Origin: Candidatus Pacebacteria bacterium CG_4_9_14_0_2_um_filter_40_15
GTDB taxonomy: Bacteria > Patescibacteriota > Microgenomatia > UBA1400 > PJMF01
Direction: 5' to 3'
Assembly (NCBI GenBank): GCA_002788675.1
Contig: PFRS01000005.1
Location: 314,635 to 378,634 of the forward strand
Length of the DNA stretch: 64,000 bases
Below, piece after piece: positions 9,108-41,840 of this stretch. The stretch's first letter is position 1; every line of letters starts with the position of its first letter. Made by a program: the position numbers and the translations under genes. The notes beneath the pieces were generated by a model. The model did not search any database, had not been told where the DNA came from, and saw only the letters and a list, made by a program, of their open reading frames with translations.

Positions 9108-10238
9108 TTATTTTACTTCCATTACTCCAGTATACATTCCCATTGAACAAGTAAAGGTAAATTTGCCTTTTGAAGTTGGTGTAAAAGTAAATGTCTGTGC
9201 ATCAGTGGCCTTAAGATTTGCAGAAATATTAAATTCTTTAAATATAAATGAAAGCGCACACGAATACGTTCCATTACTCTGCACTGTCAGTTCAACTGGA
9301 ACCCCTTGCTTTACTGTCACGTAATTTGGACTGTATCCCTGATTCACTGCGTTGATGGTAACCTTTTGCACTCCATTTACTACTTGTGCCATGCCACTTC
9401 CAGCTCCATTTGATTCTGCAAATCGGTCACTAGAAAAGAAATAGGTAACTGGGCGAACTATCTTGCTCAGCGTAATCGGTGCATCAGTAACAATCAGGAC
9501 CCCGTTCACAGAGTACAGCGCCATACCAATCAGAACAACAGAAGCAATCTTCGTAAATTTTTGATACCAACCTTCAGAGAGTTTTGCTGTAGCTACACCA
9601 ATTACAGCAAAAAGTGGAACGGTACCAAGCACAAAGGTACCTAAAATAAGTGCTCCACTGATTGGATTACCCGAGTTTATCGCAAGCACTTCCATTGCCT
9701 GAGTGACTCCACAAGGAATAAACACAGTGAGTAACCCGAGCAGCGCTGGGGCAAATAAGGCCTTGCTCTTACTAGAATTGCGAATATATCGCTGCAAAAA
9801 TTTAGGTGGCTGAAATGCAACATATCTAAAAATAGGATGGACATCAAGCAAATTCATTGCCGTCGCAAACATGAAAAATGCTGTGAAAATTTGGAAAAAT
9901 AACCGCACTTCTAAAGATAAAGTAATTGCGGATCCAAGCAGACCTAACATAAATCCTAAAATCACATGAGCCACAAATTTACTCAGTAGGAACATGCCCA
10001 CTGGCATCCAATCTAGCTCGTCGAATGAATCAAGACTAAATAGCGCCGATCGCTTTTGAAGAGCTTTTACATATGCAGCCTTCTTTTTTTCTTTTAGCTG
10101 TTTTTTGTCATTCACAATAGCTTCGTGCTCTTGATCCTTTTGGTTAGCAATTACACTTGCTAATAGTCCACCCTGCATTGCAGCACATGCGATTCCACCT
10201 GTAGTTAAACCAGTAATAAATATCAAAAATAAATTCAT
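9108..10238 (-). CDS. DsbD_2/TauE-like membrane protein with C-terminal cupredoxin domain
   Basis: GGIACAAMQGG, FIPCG and FTCSMGMYTG. Confidence 0.85.
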   Translation of the reverse strand: MNLFLIFITGLTTGGIACAAMQGGLLASVIANQKDQEHEAIVNDKKQLKEKKKAAYVKALQKRSALFSLDSFDELDWMPVGMFLLSKFVAHVILGFMLGLLGSAITLSLEVRLFFQIFTAFFMFATAMNLLDVHPIFRYVAFQPPKFLQRYIRNSSKSKALFAPALLGLLTVFIPCGVTQAMEVLAINSGNPISGALILGTFVLGTVPLFAVIGVATAKLSEGWYQKFTKIASVVLIGMALYSVNGVLIVTDAPITLSKIVRPVTYFFSSDRFAESNGAGSGMAQVVNGVQKVTINAVNQGYSPNYVTVKQGVPVELTVQSNGTYSCALSFIFKEFNISANLKATDAQTFTFTPTSKGKFTFTCSMGMYTGVMEVK

Positions 10239-10250
10239 AGAGACTGTTCC

Positions 10251-12497
10251 TTATACTAATCTTGTTCTTTTAAGTCTGAGTGCATTTGCCACCACACTTA
10301 CACTTGAAAATGCCATTGCTGCTCCAGCCAACATAGGATTAAGTACTACTCCAAAAATCGGATACAATGCCCCCATCGCAACTGGTATTAACACAATGTT
10401 ATATCCAAAGGCCCAAAATAAATTTTGTCGAATGTTACTCATCGTTGCTTTTGAAAGCTTAATAGACGTCGGGACTAAATTCACATCACTACGCAGCAAC
10501 GTGATGCCAGCAGACTCAATTGCCACATCGGTACCACCACCCATGGCGATGCCAACATCTGCAGTTGCCAAAGCAGGGGCATCATTTATGCCATCACCGA
10601 CCATAGCTACATATTCATATTCTGTTCTTAGGTTACGAATTGCTTCCTCTTTTTGATGGGGAAGTACTTCTGAAAGTACTTGTGATATCCCAGCTTGTTT
10701 TGCAATAGCTTGAGCTGTTTTTTCACTATCCCCCGTTATCATTACACTTGCTATACCCATCTCTGATAGTTCTAAAATCATAGCAGCTACATTTTCTTTA
10801 AGCGTATCTGCAATGCTAAATACTGCCGAGAGCTGCCCATCGATTGCCATGAAGACAACCGTATGTCCTTTTGCGGAATACTCAGCAAAGAAATCCTTTG
10901 CATCTTCGGAAACCGCAACCATATTTTCATGTAGATGTTTCATGTTTCCAATAAGAACTGAAGCCTTACCCACAAATGCTTCCACACCTTTCCCACTCAC
11001 ATCTTTAAATGCTGATATTTTCAATGCAGTTTTATTCTCCATTTTTTTAGCTGCATAATCTGCTAAGGCACTAGCCAAAGGATGGTGTGATTTTTCTTCA
11101 ACCCCGTGAAGGATACTCATAAGTTTTTTCTCTTCAGAATAGACTTTTTCAGCAACAACTATGGGTTTACCTTGGGTCAGTGTACCAGTCTTATCAAACA
11201 CTATGGCTTTAACTTTATTTGCAACCTCAAGAGCATTGGCATCTTTAATAAGAATGCCAAGTGAAGCACCTCTGCCCATCCCCACCATAAGTGATGTTGG
11301 CGTAGCCAAACCCAATGCACAAGGACAAGCAATAATGAGCACATTAATCATACTAACGAGTGCTCGAATAAATCTAGGCTCCGGCCCAACAACCAACCAA
11401 GTAACAAACGTTAGTACAGATAAGATGATAACAACAGGTACAAAATATGCAGCAATGACATCAACCAGTGCTTGAATTGGTGGACGTGATCCTTGTGCCT
11501 GCTTAACCAAGGTGATAATTGATGCCAACATGGTGTCACTCCCAACCTTTGTGGCCTGCATCTCTATACTGCCTGATTCATTTATGGTTGCACCAACAAC
11601 AGTGTCACCAATTTTCTTCGTAACTGGGAAGCTTTCACCCGTTATCATACTTTCATCTATAGAAGTTTCACCAGACATAACGACACCATCTACTGGCACT
11701 TTTTGGCCTGGTTTAACCAGAATAATATCACCCACAATAACCTCTGTAATTGCTGTTTCAATCCAAGTGCCACTTTGCTTCACGAGCGCAGTTTTGGGTT
11801 GTAATCCGAGTAACTTCTTAATTGCTGATGACGTTTGTGCCTTCGCCCTAATCTCTAAATATTTACCAAGTAAAATAAAGGAAATAATTGCGGCGGAAGC
11901 CTCAAAGTACACATGCGTTTCTATGCCACTGAGCACAAACCAATCGGAGAAAAGCGTCACAACAGTTGAGTAAGTAAATGCGACAAATGTTCCAAGAGTA
12001 ACAAGTGTATCCATGTTGGCTGTTTTGTTTTTTAGACCTGACCATGCACCCTTGAAGAAGCGTCTGCCTGCCCAGAATTGCACAATCGCAGACAAAAACA
12101 TGGCGAAGTATGGGTTATGTAGCTGAGAGGGTATAAATGGCATCATAAGACTCATGAGCACGATTGTGATACCAAGACTAACCAATAATTGTTGTTTTAA
12201 TTGCTTAAGTTCGATTGTGCGTTCTTTTTCGGCTAAATCACCTGCCGCATCATCATCCATATGTGCTGTATATCCTGCTTTTTTAACTGCCTCAGAAATT
12301 CTTTGTGTATTTATTTTTTCACCTGCAAATACTACCGTCGCTTGCTCATTTGCATAATTAACATTGGCGTCAGAAACTCCCGGTGTTTTTTTAAGTGAAC
12401 GTTGAATAAGGCTGGCACAACTTGCACAGTGCATTCCAGATACGTGAAATGACAGTGACTCTCCTTTTTGTGTGTTGTTTGGTTTACTTTTGGACAT
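10251..12497 (-). CDS. copA: Cu(I)-translocating P1B-type ATPase
   Basis: [36 protein letters not shown] and MAFSS. Confidence 0.95.
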
Positions 12498-32426: not shown

Positions 32427-32525
32427 TGGCTCGCCGTGATGGACGATATTCGAACTGAGCTATTCAAAAAATCATTTCCATATTTGTCATATTCAGAAAT
32501 AGAAAACTTGCTAAATACAATTTAA
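32427..32525 (+). repeat. Left attachment junction carrying the displaced recombinase C-terminus
   Basis: TGGCTC equals the tRNA 3' GAGCCA on the minus strand; GCTC core shared with 41768-41771; in-frame tail AVMDDIRTELFKKSFPYLSYSEIENLLNTI*. Confidence 0.7.
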
Positions 32526-32529
32526 AAAG

Positions 32530-33426
32530 CTAATCTTTCAAAGATGATATATCAATGCTTTCGGAAATATCACCTGGGTTTAAATCTAATTGAAAATATT
32601 GACTTCCGTCACTGCCTTTTGAATTTATTTCTATTTCTAAATTAACTGGCTTCTCATTAATAGTGATAAAAAGATAGTCATTGAAAAAAAATGCACCTTG
32701 CTCAGGCTTGATTTCAGAAATATCACAGCTTGCAAGTCTGTCAGAACATTGAATGTTTGTTCTGTAATTTCTAGTAATGTCAATATTAGGTAAAAATGAA
32801 GACAATCCCATTAAATAATTGTCACAAGTCGGCGTAGGTTTTTCTGGTAAATTTAAATCATAAATAGAGTCCTTAATATATCCCTCTGAAAGCCTTGCAT
32901 TTATTGATATACGTTCATCGTACCTATCTGAGTTAACCTTTAGCATAAAACAAATAGTATTTTTACCACTCTTGAAATATGAGTCCAATCTTTCAATATA
33001 ATCTTGAAGCAATTCGATGTAATCGGCTACATCTTGCCTTGATTTAATTCCATCAAAAGGAAATCTGATTAATGGATTAACTAAATTTGGTAGTTCTTCT
33101 TCCAATTCTTGAATCTCATCTTTAATTGCCCGCACTGTCTCTTCGGCTGTTAACTTATAAAAACTTGCATCTATTTCAAACTTTGTAGTTGAGTTTTTAC
33201 TCTTTTCATTTGCAATATATTCTTTTCTCCACACATTATATATGGATATAAAAACAATGATTATTAAATAATAATTAGTCAGACTTTTGGGTAAAGTATA
33301 TGCGTCACCATTGCTGATATAAACAGAAATAAAATCATAAACAGATGGGAGCAACAATGCCAAATTTGACCACTGCAAAAAAACTCTACTGATAAATATG
33401 TAAATTTTAATAATTTCTTTCTTCAT
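32530..33426 (-). CDS. Hypothetical protein with two N-terminal hydrophobic helices and a coiled coil
   Basis: ATGA overlap with the CHAT gene at 33423-33426. Confidence 0.75.
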   Translation of the reverse strand: MKKEIIKIYIFISRVFLQWSNLALLLPSVYDFISVYISNGDAYTLPKSLTNYYLIIIVFISIYNVWRKEYIANEKSKNSTTKFEIDASFYKLTAEETVRAIKDEIQELEEELPNLVNPLIRFPFDGIKSRQDVADYIELLQDYIERLDSYFKSGKNTICFMLKVNSDRYDERISINARLSEGYIKDSIYDLNLPEKPTPTCDNYLMGLSSFLPNIDITRNYRTNIQCSDRLASCDISEIKPEQGAFFFNDYLFITINEKPVNLEIEINSKGSDGSQYFQLDLNPGDISESIDISSLKD

Positions 33427-35249
33427 AATTTCTCAAGTTCATTTTTCAAAAAATAGGCAGCAGACATGTGGTTTTTTGCAATGCTTTTATCTAAATCTCT
33501 ACTTAGCACTCTCTTACTTCTTCTTTCTATATCTCTGCTCAATCTATGTTTTAGTTCAATTAAATTTTCATTTTCTGTTCCTTCAAACTTAAACTTTAAA
33601 AAATGACATCCAGTGATTACATATACCTTTTCATCCAATCCTGCTTCCTCTTGGCTTTCCCACAAAGCTTTTGGGAAAGGTGCGCTCATATTTATTGTCT
33701 TATTAAAAAATAACTTAGCTACATTTACAGCATCAGTATTTTTTACAGATTTAACTGTTCCAATATAAGTTGATGCGCCCCCGTAAATGAAATTACTTGA
33801 AAGCACATGATTTGAGATGCAAGCATTATTAAAAACAAAAGGAAAGGACTCTGGGTCAGACAAACTTGAAAATGATGGAATAAAGTTCTTTGAAACTCCT
33901 TTTGTAACTATTACATTACAATAATTTACGTTTTTCACTTTTCTCTGTTTTAAAACTTTCCAATCTTTTCTCTTCAACTTTGAGAACTCTGACACTATTT
34001 TTTTCGATGAACCCGGTTTATAAGTTTTCTCATACCATGGGCTTCCATCTAACTCTACAAATTCATAGAAGCTTTTAACATTAATTATGGCATCTTCACC
34101 TGTCCCAAAACCTGTGGGTTCGAAGGAATCTATAGCATCAACCACTATGACATGCTCACAGCCTCTACTATCAACAAACTGTATATCAAACCTTTGACCT
34201 TCTGGAAGTCCTCCATGACTACATATAAACAATAAATCGTAGGGATAAAACTGAATAGAATTGCTTAATTCGTAGTTTGTAAATTGATTATCCCAAAACT
34301 CTTTGGTAATAACTTCTTTTTGAGCCAACAAGTCACTCACATCATCTGTTTCAGAATCAGAAAAGAATCCAGTATCTACGAGAAGCGCTGATTTCACGAT
34401 TATTTCAGGGTTTGCTATTGATTCAGCGATAAAGTAGCCAGGCATTATTCGTCCTAAAATATGAGTTGATGCAATATTAGGATAGAAATAACCATAAGGA
34501 ATTTCATCAGTATAAAATGTCACAAAATCATAAGCTTCGATTTCACCAAAGTCCGCATCTAGCTCTGATTTTATACTTGCATTAATTTCTCTAGCTACAT
34601 CGCCTCTCGCTTCATTTGAATCATTATCAAAAATCAAAGCGGCAATTTCTTTAGAGGAATATTCTAAATCTGTTTGTATGAATTTAATATCAGCGTTAAT
34701 GGAAAACGCATAGTTAGCAACTATGACAGGAGACAACTCATCATCAATATCGTAATAAACACAATGCTTACTTGTTTGTTTAAATGAATATTTATAATTA
34801 GCTTTATTCGTAATTACCAATCTTTGTTTGTTCTTTTTTGCTATTAAAAGTGCTTGAGCAACTTTCTGTTTTTCTGGCTCACATTCTAAATTCCCCTCAA
34901 ACACAATATTCATTGGTTCTGCGATTTCCGACTTTATTTGAGATTTTTTTGTTACTGTTATGTATCTTTCTTCTGGAATTCGCAATTGGTCTTTGATGAT
35001 TTTAATGTATTTAGGATTAACACCCGCAAAAATACATATCTCAGGCCTAATCTTAGCCAAAATATTGTTTAGCTTTATTAATTCGTTACTCCAGTCATCT
35101 CTCAAAAACCTTGGTAATTCAAAAACACAAAAATAATCATTTGGTTCATAAAAACAACTTGATATTTGAGCAGCTAATATATGGTTCCCACTTATACATA
35201 TAACTTTATTTTTTATTGTCGGTGCGTTATCTGAATAGCTATGCATCAA
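33423..35249 (-). CDS. CHAT/caspase-like cysteine protease
   Basis: YDLLFICSHGG (His), PFVFNNAC (Cys) and GASTYIGT...AKLFF...KALW, matching the CHAT pattern. Confidence 0.7.
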   Translation of the reverse strand: MMHSYSDNAPTIKNKVICISGNHILAAQISSCFYEPNDYFCVFELPRFLRDDWSNELIKLNNILAKIRPEICIFAGVNPKYIKIIKDQLRIPEERYITVTKKSQIKSEIAEPMNIVFEGNLECEPEKQKVAQALLIAKKNKQRLVITNKANYKYSFKQTSKHCVYYDIDDELSPVIVANYAFSINADIKFIQTDLEYSSKEIAALIFDNDSNEARGDVAREINASIKSELDADFGEIEAYDFVTFYTDEIPYGYFYPNIASTHILGRIMPGYFIAESIANPEIIVKSALLVDTGFFSDSETDDVSDLLAQKEVITKEFWDNQFTNYELSNSIQFYPYDLLFICSHGGLPEGQRFDIQFVDSRGCEHVIVVDAIDSFEPTGFGTGEDAIINVKSFYEFVELDGSPWYEKTYKPGSSKKIVSEFSKLKRKDWKVLKQRKVKNVNYCNVIVTKGVSKNFIPSFSSLSDPESFPFVFNNACISNHVLSSNFIYGGASTYIGTVKSVKNTDAVNVAKLFFNKTINMSAPFPKALWESQEEAGLDEKVYVITGCHFLKFKFEGTENENLIELKHRLSRDIERRSKRVLSRDLDKSIAKNHMSAAYFLKNELEKL

Positions 35250-35252
35250 TTT

Positions 35253-35924
35253 TTAATCCTGTCTCTCTTGCCAAGGGGCTATATTGCTCTCCCCAGTTTC
35301 TTCTGTTCTTACTTCTCTAGGACTAATGACCTCTTTACTAAAAACAATATCTGGTAAATCATATTTCTTATCGTATTCAAATGCCTCTTTTCCAACGTTA
35401 ATTTCAAAAACAGATGTTGTGGGGTTTACTACAACCAACTCAGCAATTGTATCCGGGTGGTTTCTCACATTCCTAACTGCCCATATTGGATAATCTATTA
35501 ACTTCTCATTTGCATACTTCTTTATCTCTTCATAATCAACACCATCTGTAGTAAATAAATGTACAAGCATCAAATATTCTGAAGAATAAGCTCCGCTCAA
35601 TTTCCTAGTCCTAATGAGCTGTTCAAGCAAAGACTCTTTAGATTTACGATAGCTAGTTAATTCAATAGTGGTTATATCCATTGACACACCATTTGGCTGC
35701 ATGAGATATGCATCTGGCGGGTCTTGCAGCGGCATTCGTAGATAAGTTGGCAAACCTCTAATTTTACTCAACACAAACGCTGCTATTGCAGCAATTCTAG
35801 ACTCTCTGACTACCTTATTCTCAGGTTTTATTAAAGCCCCAACACCTTGCTCCTGTTCAAATTTTTGAATATGCATGAATGTGTTTGTCGGAGAATGCCA
35901 TCTTTTATTAAATTGTCTTTTCAT
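35253..35924 (-). CDS. Hypothetical protein, PD-(D/E)xK nuclease-like
   Basis: DPPDAYL...IELT motif; stop codon 3 nt before the CHAT start. Confidence 0.5.
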   Translation of the reverse strand: MKRQFNKRWHSPTNTFMHIQKFEQEQGVGALIKPENKVVRESRIAAIAAFVLSKIRGLPTYLRMPLQDPPDAYLMQPNGVSMDITTIELTSYRKSKESLLEQLIRTRKLSGAYSSEYLMLVHLFTTDGVDYEEIKKYANEKLIDYPIWAVRNVRNHPDTIAELVVVNPTTSVFEINVGKEAFEYDKKYDLPDIVFSKEVISPREVRTEETGESNIAPWQERQD

Positions 35925-36023
35925 CTTGATTTTATTGTATCAAAATAAAACATTTATAATAAAATGGATTTATGATATTGACTGGCGATTTATTAATTCT
36001 GATTTAAGGTAGTGCTTCTAACA

Positions 36024-36836
36024 CTATCCCTTAGCAATTGCGTCAGCCCAACTGTATTTATCATCTTTGTAAATCTTTTTCATTTTTCTATCAAAATCTC
36101 TCCAATTTTTTACCAACTCTGGCATCTCAATCTTTTGTTCGTGAGGAAGTCCTATATCTGCATTGAAATTTAGCGGATTAATTTGAAAACCATTTTTTGT
36201 AACTAGTGCAATCTGCAAATGTTTGCTCACACCCGGATGAGGATTTCTAAAAACATCGTATGACAATACAACTCCCAATACCTGTGCGTAACCAAATTGA
36301 TTTCCTACCTCCATCTGCATAAGCTTCTCAGGCTCACTATGAATTCTTTCCAAATCATCTAGATAGACTTGCTTATTGTTACCACTTCCAATCGATAAAG
36401 GACTATGCACCCTTGAAGCTTCATACTCAAAACTGGGTGCTTTTAACTTCGCTACAAAAGACTTTGGTTGTCCTTTACTCCCATTATCTGCTATAGGGTC
36501 TACTGCAACTATAATCATGGAGAACGGTCTTTTCTTTTCTTCAGGAAGCTTTGAGTATAGTTCTTTCGCCCTTTTACCCCACTCTCTGGCTAATTGGTCA
36601 GGAATCCATCCTCCTTTACTCCTGGATGACATAAAGTCCCTTAAGGCTTGAGTAAACATAAACCCTGTTTCTATATCACCACTAAAACCAGACATAGCAA
36701 ACTCACCTACTGGATATATTTTTTGAACAACATCATGGAAATCTTCTTTACCATCAGGGAAAGATACAGTAGCTTGAACATCAGAGATTAAAACACCATA
36801 GCCAAACATTGTAGGAATACCAATAACCCAAGTCAT
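36024..36836 (-). CDS. Proteasome beta-subunit-like Ntn hydrolase
   Basis: N-terminal Thr (M-TWVIG), ISD, QKI, GFSG and IGSG in the order seen in beta subunits and HslV. Confidence 0.7.
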   Translation of the reverse strand: MTWVIGIPTMFGYGVLISDVQATVSFPDGKEDFHDVVQKIYPVGEFAMSGFSGDIETGFMFTQALRDFMSSRSKGGWIPDQLAREWGKRAKELYSKLPEEKKRPFSMIIVAVDPIADNGSKGQPKSFVAKLKAPSFEYEASRVHSPLSIGSGNNKQVYLDDLERIHSEPEKLMQMEVGNQFGYAQVLGVVLSYDVFRNPHPGVSKHLQIALVTKNGFQINPLNFNADIGLPHEQKIEMPELVKNWRDFDRKMKKIYKDDKYSWADAIAKG

Positions 36837-36870
36837 ATACCAATTATAACCCGAAAATAATTATTGCGAT

Positions 36871-37179
36871 TTAAGAACTTAAGTATTGCTCTTTACACTC
36901 TTTGCGAAGATTATCTCTGCCGTTTGATGTTGCATCATATAATCTTGTGCAATCTTCTCCCTCAAGTCCATTATTCTCACAAGCTCTAGGAAGTGCTTCT
37001 ATGTTGTTAGAGTACCATTCTTCAGCTTTACCTAAGCAGGATTCATATTGTTCCTGTCTGTCTTTTAGAGCCTCTTCCTCTTTAATTTTATCCTGTCTCC
37101 ACATAATGAATATTCCTAATATCGTGAACGAAATTATTAATGCTGCGATTACAAGTGAATTTATTTTTTTCATATTCAT
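36871..37179 (-). CDS. Small single-TM protein with four Cys
   Basis: N-terminal TM; helical domain with Cys pairs. Confidence 0.65.
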   Translation of the reverse strand: MNMKKINSLVIAALIISFTILGIFIMWRQDKIKEEEALKDRQEQYESCLGKAEEWYSNNIEALPRACENNGLEGEDCTRLYDATSNGRDNLRKECKEQYLSS

Positions 37180-37236
37180 ATTTTACTATGAATACTGCGT
37201 TGTTGCATACTGCGGAATAGTCAAGAATTACTCTTG

Positions 37237-37455
37237 ATGGAAGAAAAGCAAAAAGTAACAGAACTAGTGGGAGATGAAATTCGAAAACACAGAGAAGAAT
37301 CTGGTCTTTCGCAGGAAGAACTTTCAGCAAAAGCTGGTTTATATAGAACCTATGTTGGTCATGTAGAAGTAGGTCGTTACACACCTTCAATCTATACTCT
37401 CTTCAAGATAGCCAGAGCTCTCAAAGTTAAAGTCTCAGAAATAATACCCTTTTAG
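37237..37455 (+). CDS. XRE/HTH_3 regulator (controller-protein-like)
   Basis: GLSQEELSAKAGLYRTYVGHVEVG...SIYTLFKIARAL. Confidence 0.9.
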   Translation: MEEKQKVTELVGDEIRKHREESGLSQEELSAKAGLYRTYVGHVEVGRYTPSIYTLFKIARALKVKVSEIIPF

Positions 37456-37633
37456 TGGGAAAAGACCCCTTATTCCCATATATGGAAAAAACTTTCTCTT
37501 TAATGAGAGAAGGTTAATAGCCTATGGGGGGGCTGGACATGGTAAAAACCCACCAAATAATTTCTGATATTGCAGTCTCAGCTCAAAAATTCGCACTAAA
37601 TTTTGTACTCGTATCTTATACAATATAGTTAAT

Positions 37634-38323
37634 ATGAGTATGATTATGGATAATGAAGAACTACATGAAGCTATTGCAGACTTTAGCATGAGTGAGCTTA
37701 GTGAAGTGAAAGACTTACTGGTTGAAATTATCTCAAGTTACAAAAACTTTCATAAGGATGAACTGGCATTTAGTATTCAAGTTGATACTAAAAAAAAGAG
37801 AACTATTTACCTTTTAGAAGGTTTACTATCACATGCTGATATCTACTACACTCCAAGCACATTACGATGGTCTAAAGATGGTGAATACTTAGTTGATTTT
37901 GGTGCAAAGGATGGTGATTGGCTTGAATACTCAGCAGTATCTACACTAGAGCAAATACGAAAAGCAATTAATGACAGACTTGTAAATCAAGCTGATTCAA
38001 AATTGAAGCTATCAACCAAAAACAACTTGATTCATATTGTGCATTACAGAAAAGATGGCTCAATAGTTACAGCAAAAATTTTAGGAAATTCTAATAGTGG
38101 AAAAATTTTAAGTTCTTTGAGAAAGAATTCAGCGATGACTCTAAGTGAATTATCTAAAGTCATGAATGAACCAAGAAAACATGCCGATAGTCCTCTTCCA
38201 GAAAAGAGAGTCCACGATGCCATCAAATACATTAGAGATAAACTCAAAATTGAAGCTAACTCACCAAATGACATTTTCAATATCGTTGGCAAAGAATGCC
38301 AGCTAATCATTCCTACTGAATAA
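37634..38323 (+). CDS. Hypothetical protein with C-terminal winged-helix
   Basis: MTLSELSKVM...RVHDAIKYIRDKL resembles an OmpR-type wHTH. Confidence 0.55.
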   Translation: MSMIMDNEELHEAIADFSMSELSEVKDLLVEIISSYKNFHKDELAFSIQVDTKKKRTIYLLEGLLSHADIYYTPSTLRWSKDGEYLVDFGAKDGDWLEYSAVSTLEQIRKAINDRLVNQADSKLKLSTKNNLIHIVHYRKDGSIVTAKILGNSNSGKILSSLRKNSAMTLSELSKVMNEPRKHADSPLPEKRVHDAIKYIRDKLKIEANSPNDIFNIVGKECQLIIPTE

Positions 38324-38351
38324 ACTTCCATAACTTCCGAAAAAATCCGAC

Positions 38352-38388
38352 AAACTCTTGGCTAAATTGCTAAGAGTTTTTTGTTTTT
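38352..38388 (+). terminator. Intrinsic terminator
   Basis: AAACTCTTGGC-taaatt-GCTAAGAGTTT followed by a T-tract. Confidence 0.65.
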
Positions 38389-38421
38389 AACCGAAGTAAA
38401 TTACTAGAGAATATATCTAGT

Positions 38422-38670
38422 ATGAAGAACAAAACGAATTATTATAGCTCTGATTTATCACTGGTCACTACTCTTTCTTTAGACTTTCCAATCATTGGAA
38501 TAGATAGAAGAAATCCATCTAGGATTATCTTTGAATTTGAAAGCTCTAGAGAATTATCCGCCCGAATAAAAGAATACTGGAATGCTGAATTATTTATTGA
38601 GCCACAACGATTTTTTACACAACTAAAGTATATAAAAGCACAAGTATTTGGGAGGCCTAATGCTGAGTAA
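38422..38670 (+). CDS. DUF5659-like protein
   Basis: SSDLSL...IIFEFE...YWNAELFIEPQRFF...LK. Confidence 0.7.
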   Translation: MKNKTNYYSSDLSLVTTLSLDFPIIGIDRRNPSRIIFEFESSRELSARIKEYWNAELFIEPQRFFTQLKYIKAQVFGRPNAE

Positions 38671-38836
38671 TAAATCAGTAATCAGCCTCCAGCAAGTCAT
38701 GAACGAAGATGGTTTACATCTAAACCAAGAAGAGACAAGGTCTCTTGGTGAGTTGTTAGTCAGTATAGGACTTCAATTAAAAATGAGTATTAAAAATAAT
38801 AATGAATATGAAAATAAAAACACAAAGCGTAGTTGA
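38660..38836 (+). CDS. Small hypothetical protein
   Basis: GGAGG SD before ATG; overlaps both neighbours. Confidence 0.5.
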   Translation: MLSNKSVISLQQVMNEDGLHLNQEETRSLGELLVSIGLQLKMSIKNNNEYENKNTKRS

Positions 38837-39644
38837 TACTGCACACTATTTTCTATCACAACGAGTAAGCATTATTCCTGTCACAAAAGACAAGAAGCCG
38901 TATGCAGGGTTTAGTTGGGATGCATATAAAAAACGCTTTCCCACTCAGGATGAAATAGATATCTGGTTTAGATATGTATATCCAAATGCAAATTTAGCCA
39001 TAGTAACTGGAGCGCTTTCAAAACTAATAATACTAGATATAGACCCCAGAAATGGTGGTGATATATCTTTGTTAAAAAACAATAAAAGCCCATCAGTTTC
39101 AACACCAAACAATGGAAAACACATATATTTCAGACCAACTAACCTTGTAAAATCTGCCAAGCATAGTGCACTAGGATATGACCTACTCTATGAAGCTTTA
39201 GCTCTTGTCCCGCCCTCCCTTACAGTAAATGGTGCATATGAATGGATAAACTCATTTAATAGAAATAACATAGAAGAGTTTCCAAAATATTTACTTAGCA
39301 AGCTAGAACTCATTCAACCTAAACAGAATGAAGCTTCTGCCAAACCACTTAGTCAAAAAAAAGGCAATCAAAAAACTCAGTTAAGAGGTATTGAGGTTAG
39401 GCACGCACGAGATTATCCCCTAGATAGATTGCTATTAAGTGATGGTGTAAATCTCATCCAACGAACAAATAGCTACCACCTTACCTGCCCATTTCATAGT
39501 GATAGGAAGTCTTCAGCTGTTTACTATCCATCCACCAACTTGGTTTATTGCTTCAAATGTTCAAGAGCATTTAATCCAATTGATTACCTAACGATAGCAA
39601 AAGGTTATTCATTCAGGGAAGCCTTAAAGGAATTAACAGAATGA
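38802..39644 (+). CDS. Bifunctional primase-polymerase (PrimPol) with CHC2 zinc finger
   Basis: KKP, NLAIVTG, ILDID, TPNNGKHIYF, VPPS and CPFH...YCFKC. Confidence 0.85.
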   Translation: MNMKIKTQSVVDTAHYFLSQRVSIIPVTKDKKPYAGFSWDAYKKRFPTQDEIDIWFRYVYPNANLAIVTGALSKLIILDIDPRNGGDISLLKNNKSPSVSTPNNGKHIYFRPTNLVKSAKHSALGYDLLYEALALVPPSLTVNGAYEWINSFNRNNIEEFPKYLLSKLELIQPKQNEASAKPLSQKKGNQKTQLRGIEVRHARDYPLDRLLLSDGVNLIQRTNSYHLTCPFHSDRKSSAVYYPSTNLVYCFKCSRAFNPIDYLTIAKGYSFREALKELTE

Positions 39645-40051
39645 AAAGCAAGGCATTAAGAATAAAAGAAAAGAGAACAAAAGGTTTTCTTAAATTTCCA
39701 AGAAAACTTATTGAGCTTGTTCTCAGTGGAGATGTATCTGATAGAGCTTTCAGTCTATACCTGGTTATTATCAACCTTGCTGTTTATTCTGAAAATAGTT
39801 CCTACTATGGATGCCTTGAACTTAATCCTCATAACCTTTCAGAAATTTTCTCTAAATCTTCAAATACAGTTAGCAAAAACTTTAATGAACTTCTCTCACT
39901 TGGTCTCATTAACAAAGTAGACAAAGATTTGATTGAGGTTATCAACTTCAAAAAACTGTTTGATGATACTCAATATATGGAGGAAGCTTCCTCAGATTTA
40001 GTTAATAAAGTTTCAAAAATGAGAGGAGAAATATCACATATGAAAAGCTAA
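39641..40051 (+). CDS. HTH replication-associated protein
   Basis: FLKFPR...LYL...LSEIFSKSSNTVSKNFNELLSLGLI; ATGA overlap with PrimPol. Confidence 0.6.
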   Translation: MKSKALRIKEKRTKGFLKFPRKLIELVLSGDVSDRAFSLYLVIINLAVYSENSSYYGCLELNPHNLSEIFSKSSNTVSKNFNELLSLGLINKVDKDLIEVINFKKLFDDTQYMEEASSDLVNKVSKMRGEISHMKS

Positions 40052-40175
40052 GCAGCACTTTTCACCTATGTACTGGTGAATTTAAATGCTTATTAAGGTT
40101 CTTAATGTTATTAGGTTTCTTAGTAAGAAATACATAAACAATAAAGTATATATACCTGTGAATACGTAGGTTAGA

Positions 40176-41780
40176 ATGAAAGATAATATGAACAATAAAA
40201 ACATAGCTGCACTCTGGTGCAGAGTAAGCAGTCCAGACCAAGAAACTTCTGGGTATTCACTACCTGCTCAGGAAGAACTTTTAAGAGAGTACGCTACACG
40301 AAAAGGAATTCAAAAGGTTGATTTTTTCTCTGTTTCAGAAAGTGCTAAATCTAGTCAAGTAAGAGCAAGTTTTAAAGAGCTGTTCAGCCATGTAAAAAAA
40401 CATAACATCAATATAGTAATTTGCGAAAAAGTTGACAGATTAACCAGAAACTTTTACGACATGATAATGATTGATGAATGGCTTGAGAAAGACCATGAAA
40501 GAGAAATACACCTCGTAAAAGATTCGCTAGTTCTTCACGCTGGCTCTCGTTCTCAGGATAAATTAAATTGGAACTTAAAAGTTTTATTAGCAAAAAATTA
40601 CATTGATAATCTCAGAGAGGAAGTTAAAAAGGGTCAACTGATGAAACTCAAGCATGGCTGGCTACCAACTAGACCTCCATATGGTTATAAAACTGAAGGA
40701 AACAAGGGGCACAAAATTCACGTCATAGATAATGAAACTGCACCAATTGTAAAGAAACTCTTTCAACTCTACTCAACTGGCAACTACTCACTTAAAGCCA
40801 TTACAGAAAAAGCAAATGAGCTTGGTTTAAGAAGTTCAAAGGGTAATCCAGTTGTTAAAAGTAGAATACACAAACTGCTTCAGGATAAGTTCTACATTGG
40901 CATTAATATTTGGAATGATACTGAGTATCCTGGTAAACAAGAAACATTCATCGAGGAAGAATTATTCTACCTGGTGAAGAGGGTTATGAAAGGTGGCTTT
41001 AACAATACACGCACTTACTCAAAGCATAACTATCTTTTTAGAGGAATGTTTAAGTGTGAACACTGTAAAGGCACAATCACCTGGGAAGAACAGAAAGGTA
41101 TTGTGTATGGTCACTGCAACCACTACAAACCATGCCCCTCAAAAGATTGGGCTCGTGAAGATTCTGTCGAAAAGCAAGTTAAAAAGTCATTAAAGTCACT
41201 GGTAATAAAAAACAAGCGAGTATTAAACTGGCTAAGAGATGAACTGAGCACACGCATTCATGAAGAAACTGATGTATATGTAGCTTCAATAGAACAACTT
41301 AAAAAAGACTTAGTGCTCACTGAAAGGGCTCAAGAGCGACTCTATGATGACAAGCTTTATGAACGTATCCCTGAGTCAATGTATGACCGAAAGGCAAATG
41401 AGTTTAAGAATAAGACTAAGAAGCTAGAGAAACAAATAAAGGAGCTCTCTGGTGGCACTGATAAAGCTAGACAGGTCGGACTAAGTATCTTTGACCTTGC
41501 ACAAGGTGGTCATATCATTTATGAAAAAGCTGATATTGAGAAACGTCAGCTACTTTTAAAACTGGTATATAAAACAAGAGAAATTTTCGAGGATACTTGT
41601 AGCTTAGAGTATACGGAAGAAATGGCATTACTATTGAAAGCAGTCAACCAGACTAATCGTTCGAAACTGGTGAAAAAAGTTGAGAAAATGGAAGCTACTT
41701 TCGAACCATCTGAAAAGATTGATTTAGCAAGAAAAAGTGACTCTTTTATGTCCTTGCGGACTGGTTTGCTCCCCCGGTAG
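40176..41780 (+). CDS. Large serine recombinase (integrase)
   Basis: RVSS catalytic Ser, DRLTR, PPYGY, zinc ribbon CEHC...C...C and coiled coil; stop codon lies inside the tRNA. Confidence 0.95.
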   Translation: MKDNMNNKNIAALWCRVSSPDQETSGYSLPAQEELLREYATRKGIQKVDFFSVSESAKSSQVRASFKELFSHVKKHNINIVICEKVDRLTRNFYDMIMIDEWLEKDHEREIHLVKDSLVLHAGSRSQDKLNWNLKVLLAKNYIDNLREEVKKGQLMKLKHGWLPTRPPYGYKTEGNKGHKIHVIDNETAPIVKKLFQLYSTGNYSLKAITEKANELGLRSSKGNPVVKSRIHKLLQDKFYIGINIWNDTEYPGKQETFIEEELFYLVKRVMKGGFNNTRTYSKHNYLFRGMFKCEHCKGTITWEEQKGIVYGHCNHYKPCPSKDWAREDSVEKQVKKSLKSLVIKNKRVLNWLRDELSTRIHEETDVYVASIEQLKKDLVLTERAQERLYDDKLYERIPESMYDRKANEFKNKTKKLEKQIKELSGGTDKARQVGLSIFDLAQGGHIIYEKADIEKRQLLLKLVYKTREIFEDTCSLEYTEEMALLLKAVNQTNRSKLVKKVEKMEATFEPSEKIDLARKSDSFMSLRTGLLPR

Positions 41781-41840
41781 GATTCGAACCTACAACCTAC
41801 CGGTTAACAGCCGGGCGCTCTGCCATTGAGCTACAGGGGA
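41769..41840 (-). tRNA. tRNA-Asn (GTT), CCA not encoded in the current state
   Basis: TCCCCTGTAGCTCAATGGCAGAGCGCCCGGCTGTTAACCGGTAGGTTGTAGGTTCGAATCCTACCGGGGGAG folds as a cloverleaf. Confidence 0.95.

Follow-up and report, generated by a model that had tools for sequence, protein, structure and literature searches.

The window, a 64,000-nucleotide stretch of a Candidatus Pacebacteria genome, contains an integrated element of ~9.4 kb (32427..41840) that extends from a degenerate copy of a tRNA 3' end (about 32427-32455) to a tRNA-Asn gene (41768-41840, minus strand), which marks its boundary. A gene for a large serine recombinase (40176..41780, plus strand) ends inside the tRNA 3' end, and the element backbone (37234..40051, plus strand) encodes an XRE HTH protein, DUF5659, a Prim-Pol/zinc-finger primase and a replisome-organiser-like HTH protein. 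On the minus strand lie a gene for a 270-aa proteasome-beta-like Ntn protein that starts MTW (36024..36836), the subject of this analysis, and its co-cargo (32530..35924), which consists of a 223-aa ORF (35253-35924), a CHAT/caspase-like protein of 608 aa (33423-35249) and a 298-aa ORF (32530-33426) that overlaps the CHAT stop.

In this lineage, elements with large serine recombinases have a hotspot at the tRNA-Asn gene, and their cargo varies. Among five long stretches from relatives, four carried a recombinase element at the tRNA-Asn gene and one had none beside the tRNA; the Ntn gene and the CHAT gene were absent from all five, and the site carries other conflict cargo in relatives. The hotspot loci comprised the tRNA-Asn of the window (41768-41840) and loci L048, L049, L057, L071, L120, L121 and L124. 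At the same tRNA-Asn site of a same-genus genome (L121, 11094-15100) we found Multi_ubiq/Prok-E2_E, JAB/ThiF and DUF6527 genes together with XRE and an IrrE-like peptidase, and this ubiquitin-type operon resembles the operons of PMC11601596. The host genome, which is 1.22 Mb in size and 100% complete, also encodes a second large serine recombinase homologue (G000 C3 10209-11087).

The Ntn gene is preceded by a TATAAT sequence (36843..36848, minus strand), a leaderless-type -10 element located 6 nt 5' of the ATG, as the original prediction had pointed out. A two-hexamer scan found no -35 partner for this element, and there is no Shine-Dalgarno sequence before the ATG. Across the host genome, TAnnnT motifs peak at exactly this 6-nt spacer before ATG (89 of 803 ORFs, compared to 18-30 at spacers 12-34), which makes a leaderless promoter for the Ntn gene plausible and suggests that leaderless transcription is widespread in the host. 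Shine-Dalgarno motifs are scarce genome-wide (165/803 ORFs). Among homologues of the Ntn gene, the TAnnnT motif occurred 5-8 nt before the start in 13 of 39 loci, compared to 5 of 39 at a control offset.

The Thr directly after Met and the ordered motifs ISD (D19), QKI (K39), GFSG (G53) and IGSG (S151), from which the protein was originally recognized, are present, and the catalytic positions are almost invariant in the family. In a pooled set of 287 sequences, from which five were dropped for gaps, the 282 remaining relatives conserved T2 in 267 cases (with one Ser and 14 gaps), D19 in 280, and K39 and G53 in all 282, while S151 and S204 were found in 224 and 272, respectively. A separate alignment of 115 relatives showed D19, K39, G53 and G150 to be invariant. 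Family conservation and the structural model together indicate a catalytic set of Thr2 (the putative nucleophile), Asp19, Lys39, Gly53, Ser151 and Ser204; judging from the sequence, Met1 would be removed, leaving Thr2 exposed. Equivalents of Thr1, Asp17, Lys33, Gly47 and Ser129 of the 20S proteasome beta subunit (PF00227) are thus conserved in a protein of the same fold, but position 201 is variable among the 282 relatives, meaning that an Asp166 equivalent is missing. The 20S beta subunit belongs to MEROPS T1.

Similarity to known families was weak at the level of sequence. As a single query, the 270-aa protein had no match in Pfam, PADLOC, NCBIfam, PDB sequences or PHROGs, and only 21 of 115 relatives matched PF00227, weakly. 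When the original suggestion of a profile comparison was followed up, the family profile aligned to HslV (E=2e-5) over residues 12-85 in the same motif register, with a shared GFAGSV.

Structural comparison gave a much clearer picture. The AlphaFold model of the protein (pLDDT 95, pTM 0.91) matched proteasome beta subunits in Foldseek (E about 3e-8) and superimposed on them with Z 20.0 and an rmsd of 3.1 A over 196 residues, followed by Anbu (Z 17.2), PrcB (17.0), HslV (15.3), BPH (13.3) and connectase (10.7); other Ntn hydrolases were lower-ranked matches. A viral structure library yielded distant matches only (TM 0.55 or less by query). All of helices H1-H4 are present in the model, H55-70 and H79-95 corresponding to H1/H2, and an extra helix (169-176) lies between H156-167 (H3) and H182-197 (H4). 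Strands S3 and S4 are linked by a two-residue turn, with no insertion there or after H2. The prediction of a proteasome-beta Ntn fold is borne out by this confident model, and we consider it virtually certain that the protein has such a fold with an intact catalytic set. Beta subunits align over about residues 2-235, leaving ~35-50 residues extra, so that the C-terminal extension proposed at the outset is also real.

The whole host genome, at 100% completeness, contained no match over cut-off to proteasome, HslV or HslU families, extending to the genome an absence of alpha subunit and HslU that had been noted for the window alone. The Ntn protein therefore differs from 20S beta subunits in having neither alpha subunit nor ATPase in its genome, in addition to lacking a propeptide, falling below the Pfam cut-off, and possessing the extra H3/H4 helix, a C-terminal helix and a terminal motif. 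HslV/ClpQ is the best sequence-profile match of the family, yet the Ntn protein is about 90 aa longer, does not match TIGR03692, has no HslU and occurs as sporadic mobile cargo. Anbu resembles it in having Thr right after Met and a C-terminal helical extension; however, the extension of the Ntn protein forms a hairpin, a short helix and a terminal strand, whereas that of Anbu is a long coiled-coil helix. Anbu operons encode ATP-grasp, alphaE and transglutaminase proteins according to the available text of PMC6376114, and Anbu-type operon genes were absent from the window element and from 227 neighbours of 45 loci. BPH is a compact subunit without a C-terminal extension that forms a heptameric double ring, whereas the Ntn protein has the extension 224-270.

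The closest published counterparts are orphan proteasome homologues. The available text of Fuchs, Alva and Lupas 2021 (PMC8665760) describes 22 orphan families that come with neither an ATPase nor an informative context; like the Ntn family, these orphans stand alone, lack a propeptide and are found in many phyla. Matched by description, the protein falls nearest to their group II, closest to PMI-2, which shares with it an insertion between H3 and H4 only. No accession among the Ntn relatives examined equals one of the 22 representatives, and the same text, as far as available, describes no terminal A-x-C/A/G motif, cleft tail or genomic context. On the descriptions given there, the Ntn family is a variant of these orphan homologues. 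The literature we searched, mostly outside subscription papers, contained nothing on the Ntn family or its tail, and nothing on a defence gene resembling the proteasome.

An exhaustive search of 50%-identity representatives returned 470 Ntn relatives at E<=0.001. The best 150 of these 470 were 107-318 aa in length, and hence no long fusion occurs among those 150. Members of the family occur in at least seven phyla and also on prophages and plasmids, and 400 other genomes of the phylum contained 0 true members and one weak match (L003), which we rejected as a family member because it represents a different, short family without the tail. That protein (922-1632 of L003), from another genome of the same class, is a 236-aa proteasome-like protein with Thr2/Asp/Lys and no terminal motif. 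Two prophage copies of the Ntn gene were situated between tail and lysis genes, and truncated ORFs were found in 7 of 39 loci. An annotated phage collection gave no match with one central family member as query. Plasmid members from cultured Gammaproteobacteria (L109, 8001-9041; L108, 8001-8804) lie beside IS3 transposases and toxin-antitoxin genes, and one of this pair has an insertion of about 80 aa. A quick tree built from 42 rows is unrooted and gives no direction of transfer; 16 of the genome loci in it came from related Acidobacteriota.

We examined gene neighbourhoods up to three genes on each side of 45 loci (227/228 ORFs), using 36 regions of the same genomes as controls (148/170 ORFs). 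There was no recurring neighbour family beyond integrases, the largest cluster (5/45 loci), no recurring metabolic neighbour and no conserved partner gene; a tightly coupled upstream gene was present in 8 of 39 loci and did not belong to one family. Integrases, transposases, relaxase, terminase, toxin-antitoxin, restriction and named defence domains, counted as mobile or defence-type categories that were set after the test set had been seen, occurred within three genes in 15 of 40 loci compared to 3 of 36 controls (p=0.003), related loci not being independent. Per protein, such neighbours numbered 25/201 versus 3/148, and enrichment persisted when mobility genes were left out (10/40 versus 2/36 loci, p=0.027), while 25 of the 40 loci had no mobile or defence marker nearby. 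Acidobacteriota are over-represented in these 40 loci, which form a biased sample because the pattern used for the genome scan was built from a 26-sequence subset. PADLOC gave specific matches in 4 of 32 loci in a run, without a control, on 143 of 201 neighbours that were partly hand-picked and came from 32 of the 40 loci; PADLOC 2.0 (2023) had no match at E 0.1 for the Ntn protein or its co-cargo.

The context of the Ntn gene is that of accessory, mobile cargo. In the window it sits in a serine-recombinase element integrated at tRNA-Asn and has no recurring partner, in agreement with its original description as stand-alone mobile cargo. The modest enrichment of Ntn loci beside mobile, toxin-antitoxin and restriction genes suggests a role in anti-phage defence, which we regard as a tentative possibility, at somewhat less than even odds.

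The second putative protease of the element is a defence candidate in its own right. The 608-aa CHAT-like protein, which is missed by Pfam, has invariant His345 and Cys477, and its family is found repeatedly at tRNA-Asn elements as well as next to restriction-modification genes. Nine of 56 homologues are extended at the N-terminus by a further domain of about 240 aa, and CHAT fusions of 840 aa contain neither an Ntn domain nor the 223-aa neighbour. The 223-aa ORF has no library match; its D-P-P-D...I-E-L-T pattern brings to mind a PD-(D/E)XK nuclease, and no homologue of it was found beside CHAT or Ntn homologues in the loci examined. The closest CHAT homologue (L048) keeps the 298-aa neighbour (9829-10734, 35% identity) without an Ntn gene, and the 298-aa ORF is therefore a possible true CHAT partner.

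The original prediction had joined the two proteases in a proteolytic cascade and had called for co-occurrence statistics. We searched for co-occurrence in both directions and found none. The CHAT608 profile had no match among 607 ORFs of 45 loci with Ntn relatives, whose flanks were at most 8 kb and many shorter, nor in 40 genomes holding Ntn relatives, many of which are incomplete MAGs; in another scan the same profile matched 4 of 401 genomes. No viral contig was matched. Conversely, the Ntn profile had no match in 20 CHAT loci (best E 0.37), which include four at tRNA-Asn and some near-duplicates and of which 13 had at least 1.6 kb upstream, where the Ntn gene would lie, and no match in three CHAT-bearing genomes. 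The Ntn gene is thus very probably cargo independent of the CHAT gene. The original prediction had named two outcomes that would count against it, and they came out differently: the homologues are unlinked to CHAT genes, leaving the gene as independent cargo, whereas the structure is predicted to be an Ntn fold.

What sets this family apart is a conserved, probably self-plugging C-terminus. In the predicted model, the extension 224-270 forms a hairpin (224-236), followed by a helix (245-255) and then a strand (267-269), and residues 241-270 (36024..36116, minus strand) end in Ala268-Lys269-Gly270-COOH. An exact A-x-[C/A/G]-COOH end was present in 185 of 282 relatives and absent from the other 97, compared to 10 of 566 background sequences from neighbouring ORFs, and the terminal residue was Cys in 134 of the 282. 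Two plasmid-borne relatives, one of them distant, 346 aa long and with a long insertion, end in A-I-A. When residues 259-270 were deleted in silico, Asp54, which sits between the oxyanion-hole glycine (Gly53) and Ile55, was the sole core residue to change its DSSP state, losing its strand assignment. Proteasome positions 47-49 bind the substrate backbone, and a bound peptide draws residue 48 into the sheet. Proteasome residues Thr21, Ala22, Gly47 and Ala49 line the non-primed cleft, and we take their equivalents to be Thr23, Val24, Gly53 and Ile55. The change at Asp54 fits a tail in which residues 267-270 occupy P4-P1 and the terminal carboxylate lies at Thr2.

The conserved A-x-[C/A/G] end and the confinement of the deletion effect to Asp54 make it rather likely that the tail lies in the substrate cleft of its own enzyme, a predicted placement that amounts to one DSSP letter between models. 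Coevolution links the C-terminal helix to the hairpin through the pairs V24-M252, V24-F248, Q38-K243 and V20-L241. Helix 245-255 is predicted to pack on the Val24 hairpin, on a side that in the proteasome is covered by a neighbouring ring subunit. When 260 sequences were right-justified and analysed for coevolution, no strong tail-to-cleft pair emerged, the best tail ranks being over 120 of 32,640, and pLDDT for tail residues 261-270 was 81, below the overall value of 95. A terminal Gly goes with Ile55 (7/17) and Val37 (8/30), an association that may come from one clade. Bacillus HslV likewise has QVTF and GFAGSV, the motifs that line S1, and small-residue specificity is therefore not proven by them.

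We propose, with a probability of about 0.45, that the Ntn protein is a stand-alone beta-like enzyme, independent of the CHAT gene, with a tail that by prediction occupies the enzyme's own cleft, making it a self-restrained, ATP-independent peptidase with a possible anti-phage function. Following loss of Met1, Thr2 would act as the nucleophile, and in the resting enzyme the cleft would be filled by its own product-like tail under the lid helix 245-255, residues 267-270 taking the P4-P1 positions so that the terminal carboxylate sits at Thr2. Displacement of helix and tail, by a trigger or by a tight substrate, would open the enzyme, which would then cut after a small residue without ATP or a partner; a ring partner of the HslU type would not be needed by the subunit. 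In a more far-reaching version, which we consider unlikely, this would be a widespread single-gene immune enzyme, built on the proteasome subunit but gating itself and hence in need of neither ring nor ATPase, that keeps a product-like C-terminus on the catalytic Thr until a phage protein displaces the tail, followed by target cleavage or by self-ligation via the terminal Cys/Ala/Gly.

Several other functions could be served by the same fold. The protein might form a ring or another oligomer that clears proteins in general without ATP, as BPH or the uncapped proteasome would, and its tail would then be purely structural. The presence of all ring-contact helices (H1-H4) in the model, the fact that its closest folds are ring subunits, and a host that has neither HslUV nor proteasome are consistent with this explanation, but a house-keeping protease is hard to reconcile with so sporadic a family, with 0 true members across the 400 other genomes from the phylum and truncated ORFs in 7 of 39 loci. 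Helix 169-176 also lies between H3 and H4, where insertions could prevent double rings according to the available text of Fuchs 2021 (PMC8665760), and mere packing would not be expected to produce a strictly terminal motif. We judge a ring protease improbable, on the order of one chance in five.

Poorer odds attach to a connectase-like transpeptidase, in which Thr2 would form an acyl or amide intermediate with the enzyme's own tail or an A-x-small target, leading to ligation, self-conjugation or head-to-tail closure. According to the available text of PMC7980362, connectase shows that the proteasome fold can serve as a ligase in monomeric form, its active site flanked by helices, and this stand-alone homologue resembles the Ntn protein in those helices. 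A predicted helix over the cleft, a tail that resembles P3-P1 and the 134 of 282 relatives ending in Cys would also suit ligation. In contrast to connectase, however, the Ntn protein is bacterial, retains H1/H2, lacks the two-helix insertion between S3 and S4 and is structurally more remote (Z 10.7), no activating enzyme is linked to Ntn genes, and ligation would have no leaving group in most members, whose chain stops at the presumed P1.

A small-molecule amidase or a non-catalytic binding protein, whose plugged cleft would exclude peptides, appears to us quite improbable. Other Ntn hydrolases act on small amides, and Anbu keeps the same residues, yet no peptidase activity has been shown for it in the available text of PMC6376114; against an amidase stand the invariant Lys33/Gly47 set of the proteasome type and the lack of a recurring metabolic neighbour. 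That the protein acts in a two-protease cascade, or in some joint system, together with the CHAT operon, as first envisaged from two adjacent genes on the same strand of the same element with both catalytic sets intact, is very improbable and largely refuted by the lack of linkage in either direction (0/45 loci and 0/40 genomes with Ntn relatives; 0/20 CHAT loci and 0/3 CHAT-bearing genomes) and by the 99-bp gap between the Ntn gene and the next gene.

The proposed self-restrained peptidase leads to a plain prediction: if it is correct, the enzyme responds to removal of the tail or to A-x-small substrates, and as a one-gene unit without a partner it is easy to test. Without such results, the Ntn protein is one more uncharacterised orphan proteasome homologue, in a family with hundreds of members and no function assigned. 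The active sites of the proteasome family are usually controlled by ring assembly, propeptides and ATPase caps, according to the available text of PMC8665760. If our reading is true, gating by the enzyme's own C-terminus would add another mode of control for the proteasome fold and could explain the inactivity of orphan homologues on standard peptides, and a role in defence, if true, would give this group of orphans its first function.
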